64,000 bases of DNA from Clostridia bacterium (GTDB lineage: Bacteria; Bacillota; Clostridia; Oscillospirales; UBA644): NCBI GenBank assembly GCA_017427285.1, contig JAFRTE010000035.1:6038-70037 (forward strand). The letters run 5' to 3'. Numbering within the stretch: position 1 is the first letter of the stretch; each line of letters opens with the position of its first letter. Position numbers and translations under genes: made by a program. The notes under the pieces were generated by a model. The model saw only the letters and a list, made by a program, of their open reading frames with translations, had not been told where the DNA came from and ran no database searches. This document shows positions 1-37,649 of the stretch, piece after piece.

Positions 1-593
1 ATGATATGTGCGTCAGGATACTCACTGCGTATTCTGCTGGATGCGCTGATGAAATTCAGGAAGCTGTCAGGCGTGGTGGCGACCGTAAACACAAGTGGAT
101 CGAAATACAGACGATCCATGGCGACGCCGTATTCCGCTGCCTTCTTCACAATCCGGTGAAAGCTCTCCATCCGCTTATCCACCGTATCCGGCATACCGGT
201 TTCGTCGAGCAGAAGCGCGATTATCTTCCAGTCGTTTTGTCCTTTGGCCTCTCGGTTTACAACCGAAAATATCCTGTCGGTTTTGTCCCCTTCGAGGGAG
301 ACCGAATTGATGATGCCCGGATTTTTGCAGAGGGGAATGCACGTCAGGATCGTGTCGAGATTCGGGCTGTCGAGGCTGAAGCGCACGTCGGGGTGATCGT
401 CCTGAATGAGTTCGATCATCCAGCAGAGAACATCCGCGTCTTCCTCCGGTACACCGGAACAGATATCAAGATAATCCGCACGGGTGTCGAGCTGGCGCGA
501 AGCAAGATCTCGGATGAACGCCCCATCCCGGTTCCGGATCGCCTCTGCCACGGATTTGATGGCTCCGTTAAGTTTTTCTCCAATGATCAGCAT
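1..593 (-). CDS. acsE: Methyltetrahydrofolate:corrinoid methyltransferase (AcsE / pterin-binding family), 3' end outside window
   Basis: Not in ORF track; manual translation from ATG 593 (SD AAGGAG upstream) gives MLIIGEKLNGAIKSVAEAIRNRD...YLDICSG...FSLDSPN...GIINSVSLEG...LYFDPLV, open to the window edge; matches AcsE/MeTr motifs. Confidence 0.85.
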   Translation of the reverse strand, partial: MLIIGEKLNGAIKSVAEAIRNRDGAFIRDLASRQLDTRADYLDICSGVPEEDADVLCWMIELIQDDHPDVRFSLDSPNLDTILTCIPLCKNPGIINSVSLEGDKTDRIFSVVNREAKGQNDWKIIALLLDETGMPDTVDKRMESFHRIVKKAAEYGVAMDRLYFDPLVFTVATTPDSFLNFISASSRIRSEYPDAHI

Positions 594-650
594 AGCATGT
601 CTCCTTGTTATCAACTTATTTTTGTATTTTTGAGTAGGCTTTGTATGTAA

Positions 651-1673
651 TTATGCGCGGACGCGCTCATCCAGTTCATTTATGACCGAAGGGATGATCT
701 CAAAGAGATCGCCCTTCACTGCGATATCCGCGAGCTTCATCATTGGCGTCGTGTCGTCAACGTCGATGGCGATAATCGTTTTGCAGGACTGCATCCCGAT
801 AAGGTGCTGGATTTGTCCGGAGATCCCGCAGGCGATGTAGACGTCCGCCTGTACAGTCGCGCCGGTCTGCCCCACCTGATGCGGGTAGCCGATCCAGCCG
901 TTGTCCACCGCCGCCCGGCTCGCTCCCACAGCGCCGCCGATCCGCTTCGCGAAATCCTCCAGCAGCTGAAACCCCGCTGGCCCTCCCATGGCGCGTCCGC
1001 CCGCAACGATGATTTGGGCTTCGCTGAGGTTGACGGAGGACTCCTTCCGCTCGACGACGCGAAGGATTTCCTTGATTCCCGCGGCGTCTTCGGGCACAGT
1101 CTCCTCCCGGATGATCTCCCCGGTCCGGTTAAGGTCCGGTACAGGCGCCCGCATGACCTTCGGACGGACCGTCGCCATCTGCGGACGGTATTCCACGCTT
1201 CGGATGGTCGCCATGATGTTGCCGCCGAATGCGGGACGGGTCTGGAGCAGCTCTCCCGTTTCGGGATCAATGGCGAGGGCGGTACAGTCCGCGGTCAACC
1301 CCGCCTCGATTTTCCCGGCCAGCCGGGGGATCAGCGCACGTCCCCGGTTCGTGGCGGCTCCGAGCATGATTTCAGGGCGGTATTTCGCCGTAAGACGCTC
1401 GAGGATATGGCATTCGAGCTCGTCGTTGAATGCGCCGAGGCGTGGGTCTTCCACAAGGATCACGCGGTCCGCGCCGTATGAGATTAGCGATTCTGCCGCG
1501 CCTCCGAGTCCGCTCCCAAGGACGACCGTCCAGACCTCACATGCCCGCTTTGCGGCGAGCTCCCGTGCGATCCCTAAAAGCTCGAACGAAACTGGCAGGA
1601 CCTCTCCTCCGAGAATCTCGGATATGGTCCAAATGTTCCGGTACTCTTTCTTTTCATATTCGTTTACTTTCAT
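651..1673 (-). CDS. etfA: Electron transfer flavoprotein alpha subunit
   Basis: GLTADCT, RPAFGGN, QMATVRP, GASRAAVD, QVGQTG, GISGQIQH motifs; SD AAGGAGG. Confidence 0.95.
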   Translation of the reverse strand: MKVNEYEKKEYRNIWTISEILGGEVLPVSFELLGIARELAAKRACEVWTVVLGSGLGGAAESLISYGADRVILVEDPRLGAFNDELECHILERLTAKYRPEIMLGAATNRGRALIPRLAGKIEAGLTADCTALAIDPETGELLQTRPAFGGNIMATIRSVEYRPQMATVRPKVMRAPVPDLNRTGEIIREETVPEDAAGIKEILRVVERKESSVNLSEAQIIVAGGRAMGGPAGFQLLEDFAKRIGGAVGASRAAVDNGWIGYPHQVGQTGATVQADVYIACGISGQIQHLIGMQSCKTIIAIDVDDTTPMMKLADIAVKGDLFEIIPSVINELDERVRA

Positions 1674-1685
1674 GCTCAGCCCTCC

Positions 1686-2474
1686 TTATAAGAGTCCGCG
1701 CGCCAGCATCTCGCCGACCAACAATTTCGCCGCATCCGCCGGAGCGCCAGAAATGGTCAAGGTATCTGTGTTCCGAATTGCGGGAGGCTCTGTACGTACC
1801 ACCCGGGTCGGGGATGCTGCGAGACCGATTTTGTCGGGATCAGCGCCGATGTCCTTATATGTCCAGAGGGGGATTTCAATCCGTCTGGCTTCTCTTGCCC
1901 TGCGAAGGGTCGGGATGCGAGGAACGTTAATGTCCTTCACTACAGTGATCAGTGCAGGCGTTTGCAGCCTGACGATGTCATATCCCCTTTCGTTCATCCG
2001 GCGGACGGTGAGCGTTCCGTTTCCGATTTCGTCCACCTGCATGACGTTTGCCGCCTGCATAATATTCAACTTTGCTGCGATTCCGGGACCGACCTGAGCG
2101 GTATCCCCGTCGATCGCCTGCTTTCCGCACAGGATCAGATCTACACCGCCGACTGTCTCAATGGCTTTTGCCAGCGCGTAGCTTGTCGCCCATGTATCCG
2201 AGCCGGCAAACTCCCTGCCGCAGAGCAGAAACGCCCGGTCCGCTCCCATGGAAAGCGCCTCGGTAAGGACGTTCTTCGCGCTCTCGGGACCCATGGACAG
2301 TGCGATCACCTCGCCGCCGACCCATTCCCGGATACGTATAGCCTCTTCGAGTGCATACAGATCGAAGGGATTCAGAACCGCTTTCGTCCCCTCGCGGATG
2401 ATTCGCTTAGTTTCGGGATCGATCTTCGCGTCGGTCGTTGCGGGAACCTGCTTGACACAGACTACTATTTTCAT
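1686..2474 (-). CDS. etfB: Electron transfer flavoprotein beta subunit
   Basis: Start reassigned to MKIVVCVKQVP (ATG 2474, SD GAGGAGG, ATGA overlap with metF stop); NPFD, LSMGP, GSDTWAT, GKQAIDGDTAQVGP motifs. Confidence 0.95.
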   Translation of the reverse strand: MKIVVCVKQVPATTDAKIDPETKRIIREGTKAVLNPFDLYALEEAIRIREWVGGEVIALSMGPESAKNVLTEALSMGADRAFLLCGREFAGSDTWATSYALAKAIETVGGVDLILCGKQAIDGDTAQVGPGIAAKLNIMQAANVMQVDEIGNGTLTVRRMNERGYDIVRLQTPALITVVKDINVPRIPTLRRAREARRIEIPLWTYKDIGADPDKIGLAASPTRVVRTEPPAIRNTDTLTISGAPADAAKLLVGEMLARGLL

Positions 2475-3286
2475 TTGCTGTTCCTCCTCTCTTCCGCCAT
2501 TTCCTCGATGGCGGAATACTGCGTTTTGAAGCCGAGAAGGGAGAGATAGAATCCGCACCCCGGATACAGTTTCAGAAGTGTTTCCAGCGTCCCGATCGGA
2601 TCGAAGGCCGCGTCCTCCGGAATGGGATAGCCAACCACATCCGAAAGCAGGAAGAGCTTTTTCGACATCCACGCCTCTACGATCACAGGCAGATCGGGAT
2701 ATTCCGCGAGCAGACGGTCCACAGCCGCGTTTCGTTCGATGATCGGCTGCGTGATGACGAACGACGCCCCCGCATCAAGTTTTCGTTTCAGCTTTTCAAA
2801 TTCATGCTCCTCCGGTTCGTACGGGTTGAAGGCGACGCCGACTGCGAATGACGGATAATGCTTCCGGATATACCGCGTCAGATCCACGGAGGTGACGGAT
2901 GCAGTGCCGTCCGCTTCCGCTTCGGAAGGCTTCAGTTTCGGCAGCCGTGGAGAGCCGTCCCCGCTGATCGCAAGGATCGAATTGATTCCCAGCTTTTCGC
3001 ATGATTCGAGGATGTCGTCGAGATTTTGTTTCGTGTGGAAGGTGTTGAGATGGATCAGAATCTGATCCGGACGCGCGCGGAGTCCGAGCTCCTTGATGCA
3101 CTCGTGCCCCTGAAATGCAAGAAGACCCATCGCGTTATCGGTGATCGAGGCTGTGAATCCGCTCTCCATCACTCGCTCGAATTTAGACGCGAAAAGATCA
3201 AGATCTTCTTCGAGCTTCTGGGAATCCTGCTTCGGCGGGATGATTTCAATGTGGAACCCGGACGGGTCGCTTCTTGTGAAGATCAT
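2471..3286 (-). CDS. metF: Methylenetetrahydrofolate reductase (MetF family)
   Basis: EIIPPK, ITDN, HLN, AISGD, VAFNPY, KLDAGASFVITQP motifs of the MTHFR fold. Confidence 0.85.
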   Translation of the reverse strand: MIFTRSDPSGFHIEIIPPKQDSQKLEEDLDLFASKFERVMESGFTASITDNAMGLLAFQGHECIKELGLRARPDQILIHLNTFHTKQNLDDILESCEKLGINSILAISGDGSPRLPKLKPSEAEADGTASVTSVDLTRYIRKHYPSFAVGVAFNPYEPEEHEFEKLKRKLDAGASFVITQPIIERNAAVDRLLAEYPDLPVIVEAWMSKKLFLLSDVVGYPIPEDAAFDPIGTLETLLKLYPGCGFYLSLLGFKTQYSAIEEMAEERRNSK

Positions 3287-3670
3287 ACGGAACCTGTGCC
3301 GTGCGGCTGCGGCGGGAAACGATTGTCAGGATGAGACGGATGCCGCGGGATTTTCCGTTTCATTTGAGGTGCCTCGGACAAATATCTGTCGTAAGAGGTT
3401 TCTTTTCGAGAATGGGGTACTTCAGGTCTGCCGTCAGAAATGACTTCCGTTCAGGCATCGTCTTCCGCCACCCGCGCGTTCGCCTTGTCTGCGCCGACAT
3501 CCGTTTTGCAGGGACCGGATAAGTGCCGTTCTGAGAGATGAAATTCCAAGTGGCGGCGAGCATGACAACGGGATAGCGGCGGGCGGCGAAACTACCGGCA
3601 GGCATGAGGAGCACTGATATTCGGACAGAATAAAATTATATACCTACTCACCTAGTTGGCTACTGGGCGT

Positions 3671-3699
3671 ATTATACAGGAAATCCGTATCTTTGTCAA
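3671..3699 (-). promoter_or_regulatory. sigmaA promoter for the metF-etf-acsE operon
   Basis: TTGACA-17 nt-TATAAT perfect consensus on minus strand. Confidence 0.75.
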
Positions 3700-3735
3700 G
3701 TATTCGCGATCCAGACACACAAATTTAACATATTA

Positions 3736-3816
3736 TACCTGCTTGAGCTGTTTGAACTGCTCGAGCCGAAACACCAAAGACTCTTGCTGCATATCGCAAA
3801 AGAGCTTGCCCAATAG
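3736..3816 (+). pseudogene. Possible C-terminal remnant of an XRE/HTH-type regulator
   Basis: Startless frame YLLELFELLEPKHQRLLLHIAKELAQ* resembles the C-terminal helices of small XRE regulators; weak resemblance only. Confidence 0.25.
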
Positions 3817-3884
3817 AACAGGAAAGAAAAACCGGGGCCGATTAACACACCTCGCGCTTTTTGCTCTTGTTTCAGAGTTCGCTT

Positions 3885-4079
3885 TTAATATGGGGTGTCA
3901 AACTGCTGAAAAAACGGCCGTTTTCGGCGAAAATTGGGTGTCAAACTGCCTTTCGCAAACCGAAAAAGGAATGCAAAATGAGTCTCAGGCACGAACATGA
4001 GAACATTTCCTATGAACATCAGGATGATCGTCGTCATGATGGCATTCCGTTTGAGCTTGTCCAGACTTTGAAAAAGCAT
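3885..4079 (-). pseudogene. N-terminal fragment of a membrane protein running into the repeat region
   Basis: SD GAGGGG then MLFQSLDKLKRNAIMTTIILMFIGNVLMFVPE (one TM helix), then reads into the direct repeats and stops. Confidence 0.45.
3891..3949. repeat. Direct repeat GGGTGTCAAACTGC x2, candidate integrase arm-type sites at an element end
   Basis: 14-bp exact repeat at ~3893-3906 and ~3936-3949 located at the compositional boundary. Confidence 0.55.
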
Positions 4080-4143
4080 ACGTGACCCCTCTTGCAAAGA
4101 TTTTGAATGATATCAGATTTTACTGTACAATACTCGCCAAGTG

Positions 4144-4368
4144 TTAAAGTATTGTTTGCGTTTTGTTAACGGTCTTTGCAAACTCATAGCCGTCGATTTC
4201 CGGCATCATGATATCTGAAATAATGAGATCGAACATTGTTTCATACATGGCATCATAAGCATCGCCTGCATTCAGACAGCCGGTCGCCTCGTAGCCGTTC
4301 TGTTTCAGGAAGGAGCAAACCGAGCGATTCAGATTTCTGTCGTCTTCCACCACAAGAAGCTTAAACAT
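4144..4368 (-). pseudogene. Truncated response regulator (partial receiver domain)
   Basis: MFKLLVVEDD...FDLIISDIMMPEIDGYEF then stop after 74 aa; lacks the second half of the receiver and any output domain; SD GAGGTG. Confidence 0.8.
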
Positions 4369-5145: not shown

Positions 5146-6027
5146 ATGTCGGTTATTAAAGAGCGGATAGGTTTTATTCTCGCGGTGGTCCTTTACGGCA
5201 CCATCGGTATGTTTCTGCGCTTTGTTTCTCTTCCGAGCGAAGCGGTTGCGTTTTACCGCGGAGTTATAGGCGCGGTCGTGATCCTGCTGTGGCTCGTTAT
5301 CCGAAAAAAGCTGCCTGACGTTAAAAAAATAGGTAAAAATATAGTTTTGCTTCTCGTTTCGGGCGTAGGTCTCGGCTTTAACTGGATTTTTCTTTTCGCG
5401 GCGTATACGAATACGACCGTTGCGGTGGCGAGTCTTTGCAACTATATGGCGCCGATATTCGTTATAATCCTTACGCCCCTCGTTCTTAAAGAAAAGCTCG
5501 ACAAACGGAAGATCCCCTGTATCTGCGCGGCATTTCTGGGAATCATTCTCGTTTCGGGCATCATAGGCGGCAACATAGGCAATATCGCGGGCGTTATTTA
5601 CGGTATTCTCGGGGCGTTTTGCTTTACGGGCATAGTTTTTTGCAACCGTAAGCTCAAAGACGTTTCCGCATTTGACAGATCGCTCGTTCAGCTTGCCGTT
5701 TCAGCGCTGACAGTCCTGCCTTACGTGTTGATAAAAAACGGAGGACTGCCTTTGCCGGACCTGAAATCCGGACTTATAGTTCTGATGCTCGGCGTTTTGC
5801 AGACGGGCGTTGCGTACTGCCTTTATTTCAGCGGAATGGCGTCTCTGCCCGTTCAGAGCGTTGCGATACTCGGATATCTCGAGCCGGTCGTTTCCGTACT
5901 TTGCTCCGTACTGTTTCTACGCGAAGTTCTCGGTTTACTTGGCTGGGCGGGCGCCCTGCTCGTGCTTGCGGCGGCCGTGATAAGCGAAATTATCCCCGAG
6001 AAACCTACTGTTAAGGAGGAAACATGA
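5146..6027 (+). CDS. DMT/EamA family transporter
   Basis: ~10 hydrophobic helices in two repeats; YLEPVVS motif. Confidence 0.9.
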   Translation: MSVIKERIGFILAVVLYGTIGMFLRFVSLPSEAVAFYRGVIGAVVILLWLVIRKKLPDVKKIGKNIVLLLVSGVGLGFNWIFLFAAYTNTTVAVASLCNYMAPIFVIILTPLVLKEKLDKRKIPCICAAFLGIILVSGIIGGNIGNIAGVIYGILGAFCFTGIVFCNRKLKDVSAFDRSLVQLAVSALTVLPYVLIKNGGLPLPDLKSGLIVLMLGVLQTGVAYCLYFSGMASLPVQSVAILGYLEPVVSVLCSVLFLREVLGLLGWAGALLVLAAAVISEIIPEKPTVKEET

Positions 6028-6554
6028 AAAAATATCTTTTAATTCTGGCGATCGTCTTCACATTTACCGTTATTTTTACCGCATGCGTTGCCGCCGCCGA
6101 TATTCCCGAAACGTCCGGCGCGGAAAATAACTATGATAATACAGAAACGGAGACGGAAACGGAAATGAATACGGAAAAAATAACCCCGTCGTGCGTGCTT
6201 GTTATAGAGGCGAACGGAAAGATCTTTTACGCAAATCTTGAGGACAATCCGTCTGCTGCGGCATTAACGGAAAAGCTCAATTCGGGCGCGATAACTCTCG
6301 AAATGCACGATTACGGCAATTTTGAAAAAGTCGGGTCTTTACCGTGGGAGCTTCCGAGAAGCGACAGTCAGATAACGACGAAGCCGGGAGACGTGATACT
6401 TTATCAGGGTAATCAGATAACGGTTTATTACGACGAAAACAGCTGGAATTTCACTAAACTTGCCGAAATAGGAAACACGTCAAAAGACGAACTGCTCGAA
6501 GCGTTCGGCGAAGGTGACGTTACCGTAAAATTTTCTCTCGAATGGGGAGAATAA
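6024..6554 (+). CDS. Lipoprotein with cyclophilin-like fold
   Basis: Lipobox-like FTAC; MHDYGNFEKVG, GDVILYQGNQITVYY, FTKL motifs. Confidence 0.8.
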   Translation: MKKYLLILAIVFTFTVIFTACVAAADIPETSGAENNYDNTETETETEMNTEKITPSCVLVIEANGKIFYANLEDNPSAAALTEKLNSGAITLEMHDYGNFEKVGSLPWELPRSDSQITTKPGDVILYQGNQITVYYDENSWNFTKLAEIGNTSKDELLEAFGEGDVTVKFSLEWGE

Positions 6555-6578
6555 ACGTTTTTCAGAAAAAGTACGCAT

Positions 6579-6619
6579 AAAAAAGACCTTGCGGGCGCAT
6601 AAATCCCGCAAGGTTTTTT
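6579..6619. terminator. Bidirectional intrinsic terminator
   Basis: Stem ACCTTGCGGG/CCCGCAAGGT flanked by A- and T-tracts between convergent genes. Confidence 0.8.
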
Positions 6620-6653
6620 GCTGTATTCGATCGGTATTACGGAAAAACGCCGT

Positions 6654-6992
6654 TTATCCTCTGCGTTCTTCTCTCAGCGGTCTTTCCCAAAATACTTTTC
6701 CGCCCGCTTCACCCGCAAGGGAATCGATAACGTCGCGGAGGTCTTTTAAAAACTTTTCCTCTCTTTTTTTTGAGCGTCTGCCCGTCGCGCTGAAAATCTC
6801 CTTTTCAAAATATGCGTCGTAAGAAACTGCAAAATCGTCCTCGCTTGTATACGGGAAAAAGCTTACAGATACCGTGTAACGTATATTCCCCGCTTCCGAA
6901 TCCGATGTCAGTTTTACCGAGGCGGCGCGTCTTTTTACGCCGTTGAAAGTCATTTCCGCCGCAAAATACTGCGCGTATACGTCTGTTGTCAT
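6654..6992 (-). CDS. Hypothetical protein (112 aa)
   Basis: SD GGAGG, ends near the terminator, protein-like composition. Confidence 0.7.
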   Translation of the reverse strand: MTTDVYAQYFAAEMTFNGVKRRAASVKLTSDSEAGNIRYTVSVSFFPYTSEDDFAVSYDAYFEKEIFSATGRRSKKREEKFLKDLRDVIDSLAGEAGGKVFWERPLREERRG

Positions 6993-7137
6993 TTCATTAC
7001 CTCCGTCTGTGCGGTTTTATTTTGATTTTCCTTGCCGCAGCAATGATCGCGATCACGGCAATTTTTATATATCGGATAATTCCTGTTGCCGAACGGATCG
7101 TCTCAGGGCGGTGAAGATCCGAGGCGTTTTTCGGCTT

Positions 7138-8643
7138 TTAATCTCCGCCTTTGTGGCCGCCGACCTGCCTGTTCCTCTCAATGGTGGTTGCACCTTCCTG
7201 GAGATTTATGCCTTTTAAAATTGCGTTTTTGCCGAATTTCCTTTTAAGCTCTATCGCCGCCTGCTGAATGCGTCGCTCTTTTTCTCTCGCCGCTTTTTCC
7301 GCCGCCTCCGTTTTTTCGGTTTCGGCCGGATCTTCAAAAAGCGAGAGCTGTTCGCGTCCGTTTTTTATCGGCGCCGCAGTTTCCGCAATAACGTGGTTTG
7401 CCACAACGTACATTCGGCGGACGGTCAAATCCCGGTCCGTTATCCTGTCGTAAAGCTCGGTCGCTTTTTTCATTATAAGCTTTGTTGAGGACGTAAATTC
7501 GCCGAGATTTATCGAACCGTGAGCTTTTTTCGGCGCTTTTCTGCCGTAATGGTCTGTTTCGACGGCGCCGTTGTAGCCGTTTTTGACGTTTTCCGTATCG
7601 TAGCCGACCGTAAGGACTATCTGGTCCGTAACAAGGCCTTTTTCAACGAGATCGAGTACGAGAAGATCGGTCATCTCGCATAAAACGAGCCGTCCCTTTT
7701 CCCAGCTGTACGGCTTTGAAAGCACCTGTCCAGAGCTTATGCTGTTGTTTTCTGGCCTGAACGCCTTGACATCCGCTATAGTTGTCGGTTCGTAGCCCCA
7801 CGCGTGGTTTATAAGCAGCTCCGCGTTTATACCGAATTCCCTGTAAAGCCACTCTTCGTTTCTGACCGAACAGAGCGCAATGTCTCCAAGCGTATAAATT
7901 CCCATTGTTTCAAGCCGTCTTGCAATGCCGCCGCCTATACGCCAGATATCGGTTATAGGTCTGTGACACCACAGCGTTTTGCGAAACGTCATAACGTCAA
8001 GCTCAGCTATGCGAACTCCGTATTCATCGGCAGGCATATGCTTTGCGGTAACGTCCATTGCAACTTTTGCAAGAAACAGGTTCGTACCTATGCCCGCCGT
8101 TGCCGTGATCCCCGTTTCGGCAAGCACGTTTTTTATCAGCCGCATCGCAAATTCGCGCGCCGTAAGATTATACATTTTCAAATACTGCGTTGCGTCTATA
8201 AAAACCTCGTCTACGGAATACGCGAAAATATCTTCCGGCGAAACGTCCCGCAGATACACCGAATAGACCTGCCCGCTTACGCGCATATATTCTCTCATGC
8301 GCGGGACGGCGCGTATAAAATCAACTTCAAGCGACGGATCCGACGAAAGCGCGGTATAATCGTCGGATTTTCCGGAAAACGGTCTGCCGCGAAGCGCGTA
8401 TTTCCGTTGGGCGTTTACCTCTTTTATGCGCTGAACCGCCTCGAAAAGTCTTGCTCTGCCCGAAATTCCGTATGATTTTAGCGACGGTGAAACCGCAAGG
8501 CATATCGTCTTTTCCGTTCGGCTCTCGTCGGCTACGACAAGGTTTGTCGTCAGCGGGTCGCGGCCCAGCGCAACGCATTCGACCGAAGCGTAAAAAGACT
8601 TCAGGTCTATCGCAATGTATTTTCTGTTTCCGTCGTCCGTCAT
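7138..8643 (-). CDS. Y-family error-prone DNA polymerase (UmuC/ImpB/MucB type)
   Basis: IAIDLKSFYASVE and YSVDEVFID catalytic motifs, GIGTNLFLAK, QLSLF clamp-binding motif, C-terminal RNRQVGGH. Confidence 0.92.
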   Translation of the reverse strand: MTDDGNRKYIAIDLKSFYASVECVALGRDPLTTNLVVADESRTEKTICLAVSPSLKSYGISGRARLFEAVQRIKEVNAQRKYALRGRPFSGKSDDYTALSSDPSLEVDFIRAVPRMREYMRVSGQVYSVYLRDVSPEDIFAYSVDEVFIDATQYLKMYNLTAREFAMRLIKNVLAETGITATAGIGTNLFLAKVAMDVTAKHMPADEYGVRIAELDVMTFRKTLWCHRPITDIWRIGGGIARRLETMGIYTLGDIALCSVRNEEWLYREFGINAELLINHAWGYEPTTIADVKAFRPENNSISSGQVLSKPYSWEKGRLVLCEMTDLLVLDLVEKGLVTDQIVLTVGYDTENVKNGYNGAVETDHYGRKAPKKAHGSINLGEFTSSTKLIMKKATELYDRITDRDLTVRRMYVVANHVIAETAAPIKNGREQLSLFEDPAETEKTEAAEKAAREKERRIQQAAIELKRKFGKNAILKGINLQEGATTIERNRQVGGHKGGD

Positions 8644-8687
8644 ACGCGCGCCGCCTTTCCTCTCAAAAAATCATTCGCCGGAAAATG

Positions 8688-9119
8688 TCATTTTGCCCCG
8701 CTTATCCGTTTTTCAAGTGCCTTTTTCAGATATTCATATCGTTTTTTCTTTTCTTCTTTTGAGAAATGGACGTCTTTGAACTGTTCGGGACAGTTTTCGT
8801 AATCAAGCGCGGTATCGCCGAACTGTTCGCTCGTAAGGTCAAAAACGCCGCCGTCTATTACGTTGAAACAGTGAAAATTACCGTCGTCAAGAGGCACTCC
8901 GCATACCTTTCCGCCGAATATGTCCTGCAATGCAAACGCAGTTACAGAGCACTGACCGAGCGTTTTGTTTTCGCTTTTCCATTCGCCGCGCATCCTCGGC
9001 GCGCATGTTTCGGCGCACCAGATATCGGAGAGAATATCGTAGTAATCGCAAAGATTTCGTCCGTTTCCGTCCGTTACGGTATCGGCTCTCTGCCATCCGT
9101 AAAAATCGTATCTTTTCAT
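8688..9119 (-). CDS. YunG-like protein
   Basis: WCAETC, GQCSVTA, GG, HCFN, DLTSEQF pattern typical of the YunG family. Confidence 0.7.
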   Translation of the reverse strand: MKRYDFYGWQRADTVTDGNGRNLCDYYDILSDIWCAETCAPRMRGEWKSENKTLGQCSVTAFALQDIFGGKVCGVPLDDGNFHCFNVIDGGVFDLTSEQFGDTALDYENCPEQFKDVHFSKEEKKKRYEYLKKALEKRISGAK

Positions 9120-9155
9120 TTTGTTCTCCGTTTTTTTTACTTTGAGTCCGATGCC

Positions 9156-9184
9156 ATTATATCACACTTTGCGAAATCTGTCAA
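9156..9184 (-). promoter_or_regulatory. sigmaA promoter for yunG-umuC
   Basis: TTGACA-17-TATAAT with extended TG. Confidence 0.75.
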
Positions 9185-9225
9185 CAGGAAAAACAAGATT
9201 TTTTTAATAAAATTGCGAATATTAC

Positions 9226-9254
9226 TTGACAGAAGGCAAATTTTATGCTATATT
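9226..9254 (+). promoter_or_regulatory. sigmaA promoter for yolD-like gene
   Basis: TTGACA-17-TATATT with TG extension. Confidence 0.65.
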
Positions 9255-9297
9255 GTATACACGAAATGTGATATTTTAATATTTGGGAGGGGAGCGT

Positions 9298-9726
9298 ATG
9301 GAAAACAAGTATGCGGGAATACTTTTTTTGCCGTATCATGTTCCGGCTTTGCCCGCGGGGAGAGGGCGCGCAAATTACGCTGCGCAGTTTTCTCCGTTTG
9401 CCGCGCTTGCGGGATATGAGGGTATTGTCCGCGAAACGGAAAGGTATACGGAATACAGACCCGAGATTGACGAAAGCGAAAAAATGCGCATCGGGTGGAA
9501 GCTTAAACTGATTCTTGCCAAAGCGGATGAAAAACACGAGATCACCGTAACGTATTTTGTTGCGGACCCGTTCAAGCCGGGCGGTGCATACGTTACGTCA
9601 AAAGGGGCGGTTAAATCGTTTGACGGTTATCGGGGCGTCGTTGTTTTTACGGACGGAACGGAGATACCGGCGGAGGATATTCTGGCGCTTGATGCGGATA
9701 TAACCGATGCTGCAGACGGTTTATAG
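9298..9726 (+). CDS. YolD-like protein
   Basis: RANYAAQFSPFAALAGY motif and C-terminal ITVTYF...GGAYVT...G beta domain; adjacent to UmuC-like gene. Confidence 0.85.
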   Translation: MENKYAGILFLPYHVPALPAGRGRANYAAQFSPFAALAGYEGIVRETERYTEYRPEIDESEKMRIGWKLKLILAKADEKHEITVTYFVADPFKPGGAYVTSKGAVKSFDGYRGVVVFTDGTEIPAEDILALDADITDAADGL

Positions 9727-12257: not shown

Positions 12258-13865
12258 ATGCAGATAAAAAACGGCCAAGCGATATTATCTCTTGTTCTCG
12301 CGGTAATAATGATTGCATTCCTTGCCGCATGCGGCGAACCCGAAGAACAGCAAACAGGTAATCCCGTAATGAAAGTTATGCTCAATATAACCGAGTATGA
12401 TTTCACTTCACCCGACGAGTCGATCCGTCTTTCGGCGGTTGTTTTGCCCGAAGACGCGGACGACAAGACGCTCACATGGACAAACAGCGATCCGAACGTT
12501 GCAGCGCTGAACGACGAATACACGGTAGTTCCCCTTGTTAACGGCGAAACCGTTATAACGGTAACTTCCGTTGCGAGCGGACTGAGCGCAGAATGTAAAA
12601 TAACCGTCAATCTCCCCGAAGTGGAGCCGCCTGTGCTTACAACTCCCGTAACAGGTGTAATTATTTCTCTCACGGAGCTGACATTTGACGAAATCGGCGC
12701 GTCCGAACAGATAACCGCAGACGTAACACCGTTTTCCGCAACAAATCAGAACGTAACGTGGATTAGCACCGACCCCGCCGTTGCAACGGTTGACGAAACG
12801 GGAAAAGTAACTGCCGTAAAAGAAGGAAATACCGTAATAGCGGTTACTACCGAAGACGGCGGATTTTCCGCAACGTGCGCGGTAACGGTTGCGATACCCA
12901 AAGCCGAAACGCCTTCCGAAAGCACAACCGAAAGCAACAGCGGTTCGAGCAGCTCCGGCAACTCAGGCACTTCGAGCGGCAATTCGGGAAATTCGGGCAG
13001 CAGCTCCGGCAACTCCGGGAGCAGTTCGGGCAGCAGCTCCGGCAGCAGTTCGGGCAGCAGCTCCGGCAATTCCGGCAGCTCGAGCACTTCCGTTAAGCTC
13101 CCGTCTATTCCCGCTGCAAAAACGGACTCCGACCACTTCCTTATTTCCGACAACCTTCTTGATTTCAACAAGGTAAATCCCGATGTCAAGGCATGGCTCT
13201 ATGTTCCGGGAACGAATATGAACTTCCCCGTAGCGCAGACGACCGACAACGATTATTATCTTACAAGAGGCCTTGACAAAAAGTCTAAATACACGGGTTC
13301 GTGCTACGTAGACCACCGCAACGAGCTTCTTATAGACTCCAATACGATTCTTTACGGACATGCGAAGGGCACTGATATTTTCGACCAGCTTGAAAACGTT
13401 ACTCAGACAAAAGAATGGTTCTCCAAAAAGGACAATATGTATGTCTGCCTGAATACTCTTACGGAGCTTACCGTATGGCAGGTATTCGCATGCTATTATA
13501 CAGACTCAGACGAATATTACTATCTTTATACAAACTTCTATCTGGACGAGCAGACCGTTTTGAAAAAGTATAATGAACTTGCCGCAACAGACCCCGAAAA
13601 GGCAGTTTTCGGATTGCTCGATCCTCAAACGATGCACGATTTCATGACCGATGACGAGGCGTTCGTCAACTTTATGACGGGCTGGAGACAGCGCGTTGTA
13701 ACTTATAAATACAACGAAGTAAACAATTATCTCAAGAGCCGTGATTACGGAGTAAAGATCGAACCGGGCGACAAAGTTATCACTCTTTCAACGTGCGCCG
13801 ATGCATCCGGTCCCATACGCTACATCCTTCTTGCAAAGCTTATAGCCACAAAACCGAGACCGTAA
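12258..13865 (+). CDS. Lipoprotein with two Big_2 Ig-like domains, Ser/Gly linker and C-terminal class B sortase domain
   Basis: Lipobox FLAAC; two Big_2 repeats (WTNSDPNVA, WISTDPAVATVD); NPDVKAWLYVPGT, DNDYYL, ILYGH, ITLSTC...R sortase B motifs. Confidence 0.85.
   Translation: MQIKNGQAILSLVLAVIMIAFLAACGEPEEQQTGNPVMKVMLNITEYDFTSPDESIRLSAVVLPEDADDKTLTWTNSDPNVAALNDEYTVVPLVNGETVITVTSVASGLSAECKITVNLPEVEPPVLTTPVTGVIISLTELTFDEIGASEQITADVTPFSATNQNVTWISTDPAVATVDETGKVTAVKEGNTVIAVTTEDGGFSATCAVTVAIPKAETPSESTTESNSGSSSSGNSGTSSGNSGNSGSSSGNSGSSSGSSSGSSSGSSSGNSGSSSTSVKLPSIPAAKTDSDHFLISDNLLDFNKVNPDVKAWLYVPGTNMNFPVAQTTDNDYYLTRGLDKKSKYTGSCYVDHRNELLIDSNTILYGHAKGTDIFDQLENVTQTKEWFSKKDNMYVCLNTLTELTVWQVFACYYTDSDEYYYLYTNFYLDEQTVLKKYNELAATDPEKAVFGLLDPQTMHDFMTDDEAFVNFMTGWRQRVVTYKYNEVNNYLKSRDYGVKIEPGDKVITLSTCADASGPIRYILLAKLIATKPRP
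12935..13090 (+). repeat. Low-complexity tandem repeat encoding SSGS/SGNS linker
   Basis: Recurrent GGCAGCAGCTCC / GGCAGCAGTTCG units in frame. Confidence 0.85.
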
Positions 13866-13898
13866 CCGTGAAAAATCGGCAAAAAACGCATTTGTAAA

Positions 13899-13968
13899 GC
13901 AACTTACCGCCTAAAATCTGCAACTTACTTAAAAGAGGCTTGATTTCAGGCGGTTTTTGTTGTATAAT
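13899..13968 (+). promoter_or_regulatory. GCAACTTAC-N12-GCAACTTAC direct repeat upstream of a TTGATT-17-TATAAT promoter
   Basis: Exact 9-bp repeats at 13899-13907 and 13920-13928; -35 at 13940-13945, -10 at 13963-13968. Confidence 0.65.
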
Positions 13969-14027
13969 TGTTATATCGAAACGAGAATACTGTTAATTGA
14001 TATATTTTTATTTGAAAGGCAAGGACT

Positions 14028-15671
14028 ATGGAAAACAGCGAAAACAAAACAGTCGAAAATGAAGCTGTAAGCCCTGTTGAGAAAAAACCCGAACCCGAAA
14101 ACGCTCCCGAAGAAAAGGCAGACGGTAAAACCGCTGCTGAAAATACGGAAAATACGGCGGAAACAAAGGCCGAAGAGGCGACGGAGCCGAAAGAGGAAAA
14201 GACGGAAGAAAAACCCGAAGAACCCGCCGCGGAAAAACAGGAAGACGCCGCAGAGGCGAAAGCCGAAGATATCTCGACGGAAAAAGCGGAAGAGTCCGAA
14301 AAGGCAGATCCCACGTCGGAAGAAGCGGATACAAAGGTATTTCCTGTCGTTGCCGCTGAGACCGATACAAAAAAATTCCCCGCTGTTTCCGCAGGTTCGG
14401 ATCCCGCCGAAAAACACGCCGAAGAAACGGAAAAGAAAAAAGAAGAAAAGCCGAAAAGGTCAAAATCAAAAACAAGTCCCGTAAGAATAGTTATCCTTGT
14501 TGTCTGCATTGCCGTTTTCGCATTTTCGGGCTATAAAATAGTAATGGAGATAATCGACGGCATAAATACGGATAAGATGTCGGGCGATATATGGGAAACG
14601 GTAAGATCCGACGATGAAGAATTTGAAGCAAACCACGACGACATAAACGTCCCTCCCGCGCCGATAGATCCAAACGTTTCGGGCTACGGAACAGGCAAAA
14701 CGCCTTCTCAGGAAACAACCGAAAACACGGAAAATCAGCAGAGCGGTCAGAGCGTGGAAAACAGCGAGAATACCGAAAACACTGAAAATCCGCCCGAAGA
14801 AAACCCCGACGATATTTCGCAGACTGTAACTCCCTCGACGCCCGAAAATACCGATCCGTCAGGCGAAACGGAAGACAATCAGGAGTATAACGACAGAACT
14901 TACGAAGAAGAGCTTCAGGAACAGGAAGAAACAGCCGAAGAGGAAGATACGCAGTATTACATCCGCCGTCCGTCAAAAGACAGGGATACAAAAGAAATCG
15001 GCGTTGTTATCCGTCCCGAAGAAATAAAAATGTCTTCGGTAACTTATCTGAGAGTAAGCAATTTAAAGAGTCTTCTCAACATAAACTCGGATACGGTCGG
15101 CTGGATTTATCTTCCGGGCTCGAAAGAAGAGGCGAAGGGCACTCCTATAGATACCGCAATAGTGCAGACTACCGACAACGACTTTTATCTCGACCATACT
15201 TTCGATAAAAAAGAAAACGCCAACGGCTGGGTCTATGCAGACTACCGCTGCAATATGGACAGCATAACAAGCAACTACAATACCGTAATTTACGGTCACG
15301 CAAGAAGCTATACGATGTTCGGAGGTCTTAAAAACCTCAACGAGGCGGTTGAATGGTATTCGGACGGCTACAATCATTTTATCAAGATAAACACGTTCAA
15401 GGACGAAACCGTATGGCAGATATTCTCATGGTATGAAACGGATATCTACTTCGATTATATCAAAACCGATTTTGCCGATTCAAACGATTTTATAAGGTTT
15501 GCATACGAAGTTCAGCGCAAAAATCAGATGGAAGGCGTTTTTGAAACGTTTGAGTTCAGCGAAAACGACAGGATACTCACGCTTTCCACCTGCAAGGGCT
15601 TTGACAGAGCCGTACGCGTTGCGGTCCACGCAAAGCTTGTCAAACGCAACGATTTAACTCAGAAGCAGTAA
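14028..15671 (+). CDS. Class B sortase with long acidic N-terminal region, TM anchor and acidic stalk
   Basis: TM IVILVVCIAVFAFSGYKI; NSDTVGWIY, DNDFYLDH, NTVIYGH, ILTLSTC...R motifs. Confidence 0.88.
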   Translation: MENSENKTVENEAVSPVEKKPEPENAPEEKADGKTAAENTENTAETKAEEATEPKEEKTEEKPEEPAAEKQEDAAEAKAEDISTEKAEESEKADPTSEEADTKVFPVVAAETDTKKFPAVSAGSDPAEKHAEETEKKKEEKPKRSKSKTSPVRIVILVVCIAVFAFSGYKIVMEIIDGINTDKMSGDIWETVRSDDEEFEANHDDINVPPAPIDPNVSGYGTGKTPSQETTENTENQQSGQSVENSENTENTENPPEENPDDISQTVTPSTPENTDPSGETEDNQEYNDRTYEEELQEQEETAEEEDTQYYIRRPSKDRDTKEIGVVIRPEEIKMSSVTYLRVSNLKSLLNINSDTVGWIYLPGSKEEAKGTPIDTAIVQTTDNDFYLDHTFDKKENANGWVYADYRCNMDSITSNYNTVIYGHARSYTMFGGLKNLNEAVEWYSDGYNHFIKINTFKDETVWQIFSWYETDIYFDYIKTDFADSNDFIRFAYEVQRKNQMEGVFETFEFSENDRILTLSTCKGFDRAVRVAVHAKLVKRNDLTQKQ

Positions 15672-34079: not shown

Positions 34080-37000
34080 CTATTCTTCGTTTTCAGCGGC
34101 CTCAGATATATCGATGGTAAGTATTTTCGATATGCCTTTTTCTCGCATGGTTACTCCGTAAAGTCTGTCCGCAGCTTCCATGGAGCCCCGTCTGTGGGTT
34201 ATGAGCAGAAACTGAGTTGTATCGGAAAATCCGCGAAGATACTGAGCGTATCTCGTTACGTTAACGTCGTCAAGAGCGGATTCTATCTCGTCAAGCAGAC
34301 AGAAAGGCGACGGACGCACCTTCATAAGCGCGAAATAAAGCGCGATTGCGGTAAGCGACTGTTCTCCGCCCGAAAGCGACGACAGATGCTTTATTACTTT
34401 TCCGGGAGGCGCAACGTATATCTCAACGCCCGATTCGAGCGGATCGTCGGGGTCCGTAAGCGTAAGCTTTGCGTTTCCTCCGCCGAAAAGCTCTCTGAAA
34501 ACCTGTAAAAACGCTTCGTTTATCTTTTTGAACTGCGTTTCGAAAATACCCGTCATTTCCTTCACAAGCTGCTCGATTATCTTTTCAAGCTGCTCTTTTG
34601 AAGAAATAAGATCGTTTGTCTGCTCTTCGAGAGAATCGTGGCGCTGTTTGACCTGCGCAAACTCTTCTATTGCTTCAACGTTTACGCTGCCAAGCGCCTT
34701 GATCTGGCTTTTAAGCTCGGATACGCGCTTTCTTGATGAATCGGCATCTTCGAAAACGTTGTTTTTCGCAAACTCTTCCGCGTCGGACATCGTCATTTCG
34801 TATTCGTCCCAGACTTTTGAGGAAACAGAGTCGATTTCCGTTTTTAAGGACGTCTTTTTGATCGTTATCCTTTCCGATTCTCTGCCCAGACGGTCTTTAT
34901 TAGCAAAATACTTCTTTTCTTCTTCGAAAAGCGAGTTCTTTTCCGCCTCGATTGCCGTCCTTCTTTCGTTTTTCGCAGTAATCGCCTTTACTTTTTCTTC
35001 CGAAGTATAGCGGACGGCGGCAAGCTCCTCGGTTTTTTCAAGAGCGTTTTTACGCAAGCAATCTATGTTTGAATTGATCGTTTCGATCTCGTCTTTCAGC
35101 TTTGCGGTAAGCTCTTCGCCTTCTTTTCTGCGGTCTTCGAGACGCTGCGTGATATTGGCGATATTTTCTATATCCTTGAGTTTTTCAAGCTTCTGCATGT
35201 CTTTTTCGTGAAGACGTGCGGAAATCTCTTCCTGTATCTTTGCCAACGCCTCATGCTTTTCGTTTAAAGCGGTGATCTCTTTTTGCTTTTCGGCTATCGC
35301 CGCAAGCTTTTCTTTAAGAGCGGACTTTGTTTCTTCAAGCTCCGCAAGAGTTTTTGCCTTTTCTTCCGTATTTGCTTCTACGGTGCTTTCGAGGGCCTTT
35401 ATCTGTTCTGATACATTGAAAATATACTGCTCGCTATGCTCCGTTTCGGCTTTGACCTTTATATGTTCGTCGCTTACCGCCTGATTTTCGGCGATAAGTC
35501 CGTCAAGAGCCGCCTGCGCGGATGCGAGTTCGGCGGTAACGGCTTTAAGGCGGGTCTCTTTTTCGCGGAGCTTTTCGGTAAGCGTTTCTATTTCACTTTC
35601 AAGTTTCTTTATCTCGTTTGCTCTGCTTAAAATACCCGTGTTTTTGCCTACCGAACCGCCCGTGAGCGAACCGCCGGGGTTTACAACCTGTCCATCAAGC
35701 GTAACGGCCTTGAAAGAATATCTGTTTGCCCTTGCGATATCTGTTGCGTCGTCGATTGTATCTACTATTACGGTCCTGCCGAGAAGCTGTTCTATAACAC
35801 CTCTGTATTTTTCGTCGTATCTGATAAGATCGGAAGCAATCCCGCGGTAGCCGCGCGCGCCGCGAAGGTGCGTTTCGTCAAGCTTTCTGCCCGAAACGGT
35901 TGAAACGGGAAGAAAAGTAGCTCTGCCCAGGTTTTTTGATTTCAGAAAATATATGCAGTCTTTTGCAGTGCGTTCATCTTCCGTTATTATATTCTGAATT
36001 GCGGCGCCGAGCGCGATCTCCGTTGCCGTTGCGTATTCGGGGTCAACTTTTATTACCGATGCGACCGTGCCGTGGACACCCGTAAGAACCCCGCGCGCCG
36101 CCTCGTTCATAACGCTTTTTACGCTTCCCGCAAAGCCCTCGTAATGCTTTTCCATATCTTCAAACATCGTTTTACGGCTCTTTTTTTCGGAAATGCTGAA
36201 TTTAAGCGTATTGTATTCGCTGTTTGCGGTTTCAAGCTTTTTCCGCGCGCCTGAAACCTTAATTGAATATCCGTTGAAAATGTTTTTGTTGTCCGCGAGC
36301 TTCTGCTCAAGTTCGGCAAGCAGCTGTCTGCCCGATTCTCTGCCTTTATTGAGCGAATCGAGCCGCTCTTTTGCGTCTTCAAGCTCTTTTTTGACATTTT
36401 CTGTCGACTCGTCGAGCACGGCCGTTTTTTCTGTGCAGCGTCCTTCCGTAACGCGAAGAAGAGTTATCTCGGAAGAAAGAGCGTCGTATTCGCCCGTCAG
36501 CCTGTCGGAGTTTTCGGCGTAGTTGCGGTCGTCTCCGAGCTTTTCGTCTTTTTCCGCGTTTATCTTTTCTGTTTCTTTGTCAATTTCGTATATCTCTTTT
36601 TTCAGCTCCTCGATTTTTTCCGACTGCGCCTCTATCTCCTTCAGTATTTCTGCGTCGGAACGGCTGCCCGAAAGAATTTCGGAATTAATCCTTTCGATAT
36701 CTTTCTGCGCATGCTCGACATCGTTGTTTATAATAAGGATCTCGGAGTTTTTCTGCTGTAAAAGCTCGTCAAACTGCTTGCTTTCCGTGCGCATCTGTTC
36801 TATTTTTGCGGTAAGCATCGCAATATCGTCGGCAAGCTGCTCCATTTTATGCTCGCATCTTAAAATTTCCGCGTCGTTTTTCTCGGTCGATTCAATAAGC
36901 GCGGCTTCTGTTTTTTCGATCTCTTCAAGCTCTTTTGTGAAACGGTCGAGATCGGAAATCCACAGCGATATTTCAAGCTTTTTCTTTTCGTCAAAAAGCT

Positions 37001-37649
37001 CGATATACCGTCTCGCTTTTTTTGCCTGCTGCTCAAGCGGCCCCAATCTGTCTGCAAGCTCTGTGATTATATCTGAAAGGCGGACTATATTGTCCTGCGT
37101 AGCGATAAGCTTGCGCTCGCTTTCCTCTTTTTTGAATCTGTATTTCGCTATTCCCGCGGCTTCTTCAAAAACAGTCCTTCTGTCTGCGCTTTTTGCGGAA
37201 ATTATTTCTGTGACCGAGCCCTGTCCGATAATGGAATAGCCCGTCTTTCCAAGTCCGGTATCGCGGAAAAGATCGTGAATGTCTTTTAAACGGACGTTTT
37301 GCTTGTTTATGAAATATTCGCTTTCGCCCGAACGGTAGTATCTTCTTGAAATAACTACTTCGGAATACGTTTCGGGTAAAGTGCCGTCGCTGTTATCGAG
37401 AGTAAGCGATACTTCGGCAAACCCGAGCGGACGGCGAGACTGCGTGCCGTCAAAAATAACGTCTTCCATTTTAACGCCGCGAAGCGAACGCGAAGAGGTT
37501 TCGCCCATTACCCAGCGTATCGCGTCGGCTATATTGCTTTTTCCGCTTCCGTTCGGACCGACTATCGCCGTTATGCCCGAACTGAAATTGATGAGCGTTT
37601 TATCGGGAAATGATTTGAATCCCGTAAGCTCAAGGCTTTTTAACTGCAT
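34080..37649 (-). CDS. smc: Chromosome segregation protein SMC
   Basis: GFKSF, GPNGSGKSN, hinge, coiled coils, LSGGE, LLDEIE; start MQLKSLEL with SD AGGAG. Confidence 0.97.
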   Translation of the reverse strand: MQLKSLELTGFKSFPDKTLINFSSGITAIVGPNGSGKSNIADAIRWVMGETSSRSLRGVKMEDVIFDGTQSRRPLGFAEVSLTLDNSDGTLPETYSEVVISRRYYRSGESEYFINKQNVRLKDIHDLFRDTGLGKTGYSIIGQGSVTEIISAKSADRRTVFEEAAGIAKYRFKKEESERKLIATQDNIVRLSDIITELADRLGPLEQQAKKARRYIELFDEKKKLEISLWISDLDRFTKELEEIEKTEAALIESTEKNDAEILRCEHKMEQLADDIAMLTAKIEQMRTESKQFDELLQQKNSEILIINNDVEHAQKDIERINSEILSGSRSDAEILKEIEAQSEKIEELKKEIYEIDKETEKINAEKDEKLGDDRNYAENSDRLTGEYDALSSEITLLRVTEGRCTEKTAVLDESTENVKKELEDAKERLDSLNKGRESGRQLLAELEQKLADNKNIFNGYSIKVSGARKKLETANSEYNTLKFSISEKKSRKTMFEDMEKHYEGFAGSVKSVMNEAARGVLTGVHGTVASVIKVDPEYATATEIALGAAIQNIITEDERTAKDCIYFLKSKNLGRATFLPVSTVSGRKLDETHLRGARGYRGIASDLIRYDEKYRGVIEQLLGRTVIVDTIDDATDIARANRYSFKAVTLDGQVVNPGGSLTGGSVGKNTGILSRANEIKKLESEIETLTEKLREKETRLKAVTAELASAQAALDGLIAENQAVSDEHIKVKAETEHSEQYIFNVSEQIKALESTVEANTEEKAKTLAELEETKSALKEKLAAIAEKQKEITALNEKHEALAKIQEEISARLHEKDMQKLEKLKDIENIANITQRLEDRRKEGEELTAKLKDEIETINSNIDCLRKNALEKTEELAAVRYTSEEKVKAITAKNERRTAIEAEKNSLFEEEKKYFANKDRLGRESERITIKKTSLKTEIDSVSSKVWDEYEMTMSDAEEFAKNNVFEDADSSRKRVSELKSQIKALGSVNVEAIEEFAQVKQRHDSLEEQTNDLISSKEQLEKIIEQLVKEMTGIFETQFKKINEAFLQVFRELFGGGNAKLTLTDPDDPLESGVEIYVAPPGKVIKHLSSLSGGEQSLTAIALYFALMKVRPSPFCLLDEIESALDDVNVTRYAQYLRGFSDTTQFLLITHRRGSMEAADRLYGVTMREKGISKILTIDISEAAENEE

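Follow-up and report, generated by a model that had tools for sequence, protein, structure and literature searches.

Electron feed and energy conservation at the methylenetetrahydrofolate reductase (MTHFR) step of acetogens have been debated for decades. The bacterial MTHFR types set out in the relevant sections of a 2021 study of Clostridium ljungdahlii (PMC8515935) are MetF alone, MetFV, MetFV-RnfC2, MetFV-HdrABC-MvhD and a proposed NuoEFG-linked form. Coupling of an MTHFR to the electron-transferring flavoprotein (Etf) EtfAB had once been proposed, and the same sections judge it unlikely in C. ljungdahlii since each etfAB set there has its own dehydrogenase gene. In the corresponding sections of two reviews (PMC5861303; PMC6085437) the Etf partners listed are only Bcd, CarC, LctD and FixCX. 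Here we describe an operon from a 64,000-nucleotide stretch of a Clostridia bacterium genome (GCA_017427285.1; contig JAFRTE010000035.1, C30:6038-70037; hereafter the window), where it occupies the first 3.7 kb on the minus strand. A gene for a divergent MTHFR-family protein (MetF-like) is followed by etfB, etfA and the gene for a methyl-tetrahydrofolate (methyl-THF):corrinoid methyltransferase (MT2). We consider that the operon probably encodes a dedicated EtfAB-dependent methylene-THF reductase together with its methyltransferase, which would work by NADH/ferredoxin bifurcation and deliver the methyl group to a split methionine synthase. No description of an Etf-MTHFR complex or of a metF-etfBA adjacency was found in the full-text literature within reach; subscription journals and supplements lay outside it, and a prior mention is possible.

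The MetF-like protein matched PF02219 at 63.3 bits (cut-off 24) over residues 11-184, and a profile of 16 family members aligned with a profile of 12 canonical MTHFRs in hhalign with 99.8% probability (columns 10-226 against 15-232). Three residues that are invariant in the 16 family members, E14, D110 and Q180, fell on invariant Glu, Asp and Gln columns of the 12 canonical enzymes, with the Glu of IEIIPPK paired to that of SFEFFPPK, the Asp of SGDG to that of LRGD and the Gln of ITQP to that of ITQ. In E. coli MetF the corresponding residues act as general acid and contact the folate and the flavin. The C-terminal 45 or so residues are divergent and lie outside the aligned core. Scores against solved MTHFRs were only 29-51 bits, and the MetF-like clade is well separated, only 23 of the 50%-identity representatives being found at E<=1e-30 while canonical MTHFRs appeared at 1e-9 and weaker. 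Matches in a 90%-clustered collection came to at least 1097 clusters, the annotation of which, where given, was MTHFR. On these alignments the protein keeps the MTHFR core and is predicted to bind flavin and to have methylene-THF reductase activity.

Both Etf subunits were compared with bifurcating or confurcating complexes (LctBC, CarDE, C. difficile Bcd-Etf, T. maritima EtfABCX and A. fermentans Etf) and with non-bifurcating Etfs (human, Paracoccus and Methylophilus). EtfB scored 190-211 bits against the LctB, CarD, C. difficile, T. maritima and A. fermentans EtfB chains and 57-88 bits against the non-bifurcating ones, and EtfA scored 226-299 bits against EtfA of the solved bifurcating complexes and 85-129 bits against the non-bifurcating ones. 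The stretch DGDTAQVGP, which recognizes the bifurcating FAD (b-FAD) and which, in the part of PMC9232219 that treats it, is lacking from non-bifurcating Etfs, is exact at residues 122-130 of the window EtfB. It was also exact in 56 of 60 MetF-linked EtfB sequences, with conservative variants in two and none found in the other two. EtfA has no N-terminal ferredoxin domain, its alignment to LctC beginning at LctC residue 67. By motif and similarity the window EtfAB is thus classed as the bifurcating type, and NADH-dependent ferredoxin reduction is predicted for it.

The genome assembly (2.2 Mb in 49 contigs, 95.7% complete) contained single matches to PF02219, to an EtfB/EtfA pair and to Pterin_bind, all of them inside the operon. 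Profile searches of the genome for the known classes of Etf partner gave no acyl-CoA dehydrogenase, LctD-type oxidase or ETF-QO, there being no match to PF02770 (Acyl-CoA_dh_M), PF02913 (FAD-oxidase_C) or PF05187 (Fer4_ETF_QO). A preliminary description of this DNA had proposed MetF as the partner of EtfAB and had seen in a canonical Etf-dependent dehydrogenase later in the operon the rival for that role; none was present in the operon or in the genome. It had also advised inspecting the genes beyond window position 1, where we found no corrinoid protein, methyltransferase 1 (MT1) or dehydrogenase gene. PF12225, which we take to be the MetV family, gave no match in a profile search of the genome, and no Hdr or RnfC2 gene adjoins the operon. 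The search output names PF12225 DUF5981, and a figure legend of PMC5736913 calls it MTHFR_C.

We then consider how widely the arrangement is kept. A scan of species-representative genomes yielded 529 confirmed MetF-like relatives, and the best 80 of these (57-99% identity) were taken with their flanks for the locus counts; most of the holder genomes are metagenome-assembled genomes (MAGs) of unknown completeness. Family members further off, at 34-50% identity, also exist, and one cultured holder is Clostridium thermosuccinogenes. The nearest public record, at 99% identity, is a rumen MAG labelled Ruminococcaceae. Where at least 400 bp of room was available, EtfB lay directly downstream of MetF-like at 76 of 78 loci, and where at least 1400 bp was, EtfA came next at 70 of 71, so that the adjacency for which the preliminary description had called for a survey is conserved across phyla. 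The exceptions were L041, where the etf genes are missing despite ample room, and L087, where the room is only 640 bp. The loci span Bacillota, Spirochaetota and MAGs labelled Lentisphaerota/Verrucomicrobiota (MAG labels Clostridia, Oscillospiraceae, Erysipelotrichaceae, Limnochordia, Treponema and other Spirochaetales, Lentisphaerales and Akkermansia). At 60 of the 80 loci there was also an MT2 homolog, only 27-51% identical outside the close clade, and the conserved core of the module is therefore metF-like-etfB-etfA. Neighbours that recurred among the 80 loci were FTHFS (26), a formate/nitrite transporter (12), FolD (8), a corrinoid protein (6-7) and the corrinoid reductive activase RACo (6), and less often FchA, a URO-D protein with a thioredoxin domain and CobW (4 each) and a homocysteine methyltransferase (3). 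The module is patchily distributed: when the window's class was sampled evenly, MetF-like was found in 14 of 399 genomes (about 3.5%) and 7 of 217 genera, with none among the same-order genomes listed.

Forty holder genomes were searched whole for competing families. MetF-like was the sole MTHFR match in 20 of them, and the linked EtfA the sole ETF_alpha match in 23; a single ETF_alpha match was found in 25, the copy being unlinked in G011 and G040. PF01717 matched in six of the 40, at full length in one only, and a Pterin_bind domain within an open reading frame (ORF) of at least 790 amino acids, the size of MetH, was found in five. A quick maximum-likelihood tree of 64 EtfA sequences was built from 48 of the 56 linked ORFs, the other eight being of odd length, and from those paralog loci that had a called EtfA; it separated the 48 MetF-linked EtfA from 16 paralogs of holder genomes with an SH-aLRT support of 100. 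Neighbours were examined at 16 of 20 further etf loci from multi-Etf holder genomes (in G011, its sole Etf, unlinked to MetF-like) and comprised an acyl-CoA dehydrogenase in ten cases, a FAD-linked oxidase in three, an OYE-type reductase in one and nothing telling in two. Each Etf lineage thus travels with its own dehydrogenase gene, this one with MetF-like. Prediction of a complex of EtfA, EtfB and MetF-like from alignment inputs scored 0.80 in three of three runs, while partner-swapped controls scored 0.17 and 0.00 and a control in which EtfA was replaced scored 0.76, for which reason the prediction is used neither for nor against binding.

Comparative genomics thus strongly supports MetF-like as the redox partner of EtfAB, since the only MTHFR and the only Etf that the genome encodes are both in the operon, no canonical partner is encoded, the adjacency is kept, the linked EtfA form their own clade and the b-FAD motif is intact; complex formation and electron transfer are what we infer from this pattern. 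The proposal of the preliminary description that MetF is the Etf partner stands to that extent, and the Wood-Ljungdahl framing that came with it falls for this genome.

That framing had included the name acsE for the fourth gene. The MT2 product scored 57.7 bits against PF00809 (cut-off 25.5) and 274 bits against NF005719 (cut-off 259), and only 110.7 bits against the CO dehydrogenase/acetyl-CoA synthase (CODH/ACS) methyltransferase model NF040758 (cut-off 370); no CdhC/ACS match was found in the 95.7% complete genome. The name acsE is thus a misnomer in this host, which is no acetogen. Its genome does contain the parts of a split cobalamin-dependent methionine synthase (one Pterin_bind, one B12-binding and two PF02574 homocysteine S-methyltransferase-domain proteins), and no other methionine synthase was matched, neither MetE (PF01717) nor a multidomain MetH being found in the genome. 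FTHFS, FolD, MetA and O-acetylhomoserine sulfhydrylase are encoded elsewhere, as are one stand-alone corrinoid protein of 211 amino acids (TIGR02370, 197 bits, cut-off 215) and two MtaA/CmuA-like URO-D proteins. One of the latter is the last gene of a metY-cysK-cysE operon (C42:52052-56329, L092; O-acetylhomoserine sulfhydrylase, cysteine synthase and serine acetyltransferase) and is a candidate methyl-corrinoid:homocysteine methyltransferase, which would make for an unusual terminal module of methionine synthesis. A RACo-type corrinoid reductive activase with a 2Fe-2S domain and an ASKHA ATPase lies directly downstream of rnfCDGEAB (C38:20725-27604, L091), a position which hints that corrinoid reactivation may be tied to the ferredoxin pool.

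Taken with these genes, the most likely route is that the methyl group of methyl-THF is loaded by MT2 onto the single corrinoid protein, which hands it on toward homocysteine; this would amount to a split, RACo-reactivated methionine synthase. Methyl supply to such an enzyme, which the preliminary description had not considered, is to judge by gene content the context that fits the host genome best. At the spirochaete loci L072 and L074 MT2, MetF-like, EtfBA, a homocysteine methyltransferase and a corrinoid protein are adjacent. We favour the reductive, biosynthetic direction in the host organism because homocysteine is made, no other MTHFR, MetE or MetH is encoded, MT2 is the sole candidate for transfer from methyl-THF to a corrinoid, and the adjacency at L072 and L074 joins the same functions. 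Separately, dihydropteroate synthase (FolP) was not detected, the sole Pterin_bind match of the genome being the operon MT2, and the organism may depend on imported folate.

In the proposed mechanism NADH would reduce the b-FAD in EtfB, as in solved Etf complexes, and electrons would pass singly to the a-FAD, which EtfA carries on its mobile domain, and on to the flavin of the MetF-like TIM barrel, where 5,10-methylene-THF would be converted to 5-methyl-THF. Given an intact b-FAD site and an Etf of bifurcating lineage, the second, low-potential electron would probably go to ferredoxin (Fd) or flavodoxin. The overall reaction would be 2 NADH + Fd(ox) + CH2-THF -> 2 NAD+ + Fd(red) + CH3-THF, with Rnf connecting the ferredoxin and NADH pools and with MT2 handing the methyl group to the stand-alone corrinoid protein and so to homocysteine. 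Buckel and Thauer, in the section of PMC5861303 on an Hdr-linked enzyme, put the folate couple at E0' = -200 mV and the same overall reaction, as proposed there, at about -5 kJ/mol; on these values bifurcation could work with little energy to spare, and confurcation, its reverse, is no less plausible.

Several points weigh against this model. The EtfAB-MetF-like complex is a prediction from genomics, the adjacency counts cover the closest 80 of 529 relatives, and at L041, which has no adjacent etf genes, the sole EtfA of the genome adjoins an acyl-CoA dehydrogenase. The MetF-like protein is far under the curated MTHFR equivalog cut-offs, with 49.2 bits against TIGR00676, the NAD(P)H-dependent MetF equivalog, where 293.7 would be needed. 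It would be odd for a biosynthetic step of low flux to employ a bifurcating enzyme. In the host genome the corrinoid protein, the homocysteine methyltransferases and RACo are encoded away from the operon, and an Rfam search revealed no SAM, T-box, THF or B12 riboswitch ahead of it. The operon is an island of guanine plus cytosine (GC) content and so may be a recent import, the role of which in this organism is not yet integrated. Finally, the FTHFS, formate transporter, FolD, RACo and URO-D neighbours of other loci would suit a catabolic one-carbon route equally well.

Such a route is the strongest competitor. The same complex might act mainly in the oxidative direction, as a confurcating methyl-THF dehydrogenase resembling Ldh-EtfAB (CH3-THF + Fd(red) + 2 NAD+ -> CH2-THF + Fd(ox) + 2 NADH), with methyl groups from methoxylated or other methylated compounds entering via a URO-D-type MT1, the corrinoid protein, RACo and MT2 and then being oxidised to formate by way of FolD and FTHFS, which would yield ATP. 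Of the Etfs compared, LctBC, which works with the confurcating lactate dehydrogenase, comes nearest to that of the window. The lactate/pyruvate couple lies at about -190 mV. Since the folate couple is near it, NAD+-linked oxidation of methyl-THF would need help similar to that in lactate oxidation. The host genome encodes two MtaA/CmuA-like URO-D proteins, one corrinoid protein, RACo, FolD, FTHFS and Rnf, and the neighbours counted above (FTHFS, formate transporter, FolD, RACo and the thioredoxin-domain URO-D protein) are those that such a pathway would use. However, no MttB-family methyltransferase was matched in the genome, MT2 is the only methyltransferase linked to the operon, and one of the MtaA-like genes, in the metY-cysK-cysE operon, points to methionine synthesis. 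Since homocysteine is made and no other methionine synthase or MTHFR is encoded, a reductive role would be needed at least part of the time. We therefore regard a mainly oxidative function as unlikely for the host organism, though it deserves to be kept in view.

It is improbable that the genes are merely co-transcribed and form no redox unit, with MetF-like taking electrons directly from NAD(P)H or ferredoxin and EtfAB serving an unlinked or unknown partner. MetF of the E. coli type needs no partner, as stated in the sections of PMC8515935 on that type; L041 has MetF-like with no adjoining etf genes, and binding of MetF-like to EtfAB is itself deduced. Against this, Etf partners of the known classes are all missing from the genome, the adjacency persists across phyla and is accompanied here by translational coupling through the ATGA overlap, and the linked Etfs form a clade of their own while paralogs of the same genomes adjoin their own dehydrogenases. 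That the operon is the Wood-Ljungdahl methyl branch (metF plus acsE) of an acetogen can be set aside as very improbable, for although MT2 matches a methyl-THF:corrinoid/iron-sulfur protein methyltransferase domain model and ACS occurs in 5 of the 40 holder genomes, with MetF-like the sole MTHFR match in three of those (G008, G013 and G027), the host lacks a CdhC/ACS match, MT2 falls far below the CODH/ACS methyltransferase cut-off, 35 of the 40 holders have no ACS, and in the family of G013 only that genome depends on MetF-like.

The last point was taken from ACS-positive genomes of that family, 31 of 101 sampled, of which 17 had a canonical-scoring MTHFR and 13 no match, only G013 relying on MetF-like. 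In two termite-gut Treponema MAGs (loci L037 and L045) metF-like, etfB, etfA, fhs, a formate-transporter-like gene and folD are co-directional, with MT2 divergent upstream, and their genomes contain ACS and no other MTHFR match. Treponema primitia is reported in a pan-genome paper (PMC5039349) to lack both MTHFR genes. The module was considered as a general substitute for this missing enzyme and rejected, no match named T. primitia occurring among the 120 listed for a termite-Treponema MetF-like query and 17 of the 31 ACS-positive genomes above having a canonical-scoring MTHFR. As the MTHFR of acetogenic termite treponemes, MetF-like is at most a minority solution.

We put forward more tentatively, as a proposal that is possible and well short of probable, that MetF-like with EtfAB constitutes a fifth kind of Etf-based bifurcating or confurcating complex and a new MTHFR type, the long-hypothesised coupler of NADH, ferredoxin and methylene-/methyl-THF, and that in G008, G013, G027, L037 and L045 it conserves energy as a step of the Wood-Ljungdahl pathway, run forward or in reverse. 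What would be new is the partner in an Etf-dependent flavoenzyme complex and, on the MTHFR side, the module that supplies the electrons. For the acetogen question raised at the outset the module is a natural and widespread candidate. If the favoured model is true, the module explains how many anaerobes of gut, rumen and sediment that are without canonical MetF, MetH and MetE make methyl-THF and methionine, which matters for metabolic reconstruction from MAGs, where annotation pipelines currently label these genes only as generic MTHFR and generic Etf. The hypothesis is directly testable with three small soluble proteins, because many holders have no competing Etf partner.

The features of the operon are collected in Table 1.

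Table 1. Positions of the operon features in the window.
Feature	Position	Strand	Description
Promoter	3671..3699	minus	sigma-70-type, TTGACA-17-TATAAT, 12/12 consensus matches
5' leader	3287..3670	minus	long leader between promoter and metF-like start
metF-like	2471..3286	minus	divergent methylenetetrahydrofolate reductase, 271 amino acids + stop; PF02219
etfB	1686..2474	minus	bifurcating-type Etf small subunit, 262 amino acids + stop; PF01012
etfA	651..1673	minus	Etf large subunit, 340 amino acids + stop; PF01012 + PF00766
MT2 gene, 5' part	1..593	minus	methyl-THF:corrinoid methyltransferase, pterin-binding; PF00809, NF005719

The layout given in the preliminary description was confirmed on the minus strand: the TGA of metF-like shares ATGA with the ATG of etfB (2474..2471), etfA follows after exactly 12 nt (1674-1685), and a methyltransferase gene is fourth, after a spacer of 57 nt with an AAGGAGA ribosome-binding site. 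As had also been stated, no metV, rnfC2, hdr or acyl-CoA dehydrogenase gene lies between the operon genes, nor does any other gene. The consensus promoter reported ahead of metF was found as a perfect site, though 385 nt upstream of the ATG; four promoter-like sites with at least 9 of 12 matches occurred in the operon region against 2.6 expected from shuffles, and this (3699..3671) was the sole perfect one. The MT2 gene runs beyond the start of the window and is complete on the contig (272 amino acids, C30:5815-6630). Downstream of it are a 111-amino-acid ORF and a convergent ORF of 574 amino acids, both without a Pfam family; the genes upstream of the operon are unrelated, and the flanks carry HTH regulators and a Y-family polymerase. 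GC content is 53-60% in the operon and 34-45% in both flanks (C30 ~5800-9600, that is, window 1-3560 and the preceding 240 bases). The patchy distribution and the GC island suggest lateral spread or acquisition of the whole module.

The metF-like gene has no clear Shine-Dalgarno sequence. The last ~85 nt of the leader, directly 5' of its ATG (about 3287-3375, minus strand), are kept in close rumen relatives only (L011-L016, L018). None of 11 predicted pairs in this element showed a compensatory change, a motif search matched in close relatives only, and Rfam gave no family at gathering score over the whole window and none for the leader at E<=10, with only a chance-level snoRNA match (E=9) for 3200-4200. 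The element may be a lineage-specific regulatory leader. RNA-library contigs from three studies, 95-99% identical, span positions 1-3971, such contigs being unable to show transcription, strand or ends; a 176-nt metatranscriptome contig bridges the metF/etfB junction and one piece extends past the promoter, and none of this is counted as evidence of expression. Away from these elements, the 111-amino-acid ORF (L001:5128-5460, minus strand) has a 60%-identical partial copy 2.6 kb off on the same contig (L001:2399-2554), and the pair may be a repeat or mobile-element remnant. Elsewhere in the window (12258-15671; 34080-37715; 41761-46029) are two sortase-domain proteins, one with Big_2 repeats, and two very long ORFs of 1211 and 1422 amino acids.

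Among described systems, the lactate dehydrogenase-EtfAB complex LctBCD of Acetobacterium woodii (PDB 7qh2) ranked first or close to first among solved structures for both Etf subunits and has the same DGDTAQVGP. There, as here, the etf genes adjoin a flavoprotein dehydrogenase gene and the substrate couple is near -200 mV, out of reach for NAD unaided. Unlike in LctBCD, the partner here would be a TIM-barrel MTHFR-family protein in place of a FAD-linked oxidase, and the ferredoxin domain at the N terminus of LctC is missing from EtfA. Butyryl-CoA dehydrogenase-EtfAB and the caffeyl-CoA reductase CarCDE (PDB 5ol2, 4kpu, 6fah) belong to the same b-FAD bifurcating group (190-294 bits), and by analogy the proposed logic, from NADH to a high-potential acceptor plus ferredoxin, would be shared. 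The acceptor enzyme here is not an acyl-CoA dehydrogenase, of which the genome has none, and the acceptor couple is much lower at -200 mV, which is why the driving force derived above from PMC5861303 is so small.

On the methyl side, a three-part split cobalamin-dependent methionine synthase has reportedly been described for Phaeobacter. As in that system, separate pterin-, B12- and homocysteine-binding proteins would stand in place of a multidomain MetH; unlike in that system, the parts are scattered, reactivation would fall to a RACo-type ATPase and not to a MetH activation domain, and the pterin module is co-transcribed with the MTHFR and Etf genes. The O-demethylase and methyltransferase systems of anaerobes consist of MT1, a corrinoid protein, MT2 and an activating enzyme. 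The host genome has MT2, a corrinoid protein of the cognate type, RACo and URO-D-family methyltransferases in common with them; it differs in that the components are unclustered, with no MttB-type MT1 and no ACS as methyl acceptor.

Compared with MetF of the E. coli/Thermus type (PDB 1v93, 3apt), the MetF-like protein is of the same superfamily and has the same Glu/Asp/Gln core, and it is shorter, with a divergent C-terminal stretch of 45 residues. Like the MetFV types, it would be an MTHFR catalytic subunit fed with electrons by a separate module and not by NAD(P)H binding of its own. The module differs in being EtfAB, with no MetV, Hdr or RnfC2 adjoining. The argument by which coupling of EtfAB to an MTHFR was judged unlikely in C. 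ljungdahlii, that each etfAB set is accompanied by its own dehydrogenase gene, points the opposite way in this genome, toward MetF-like.

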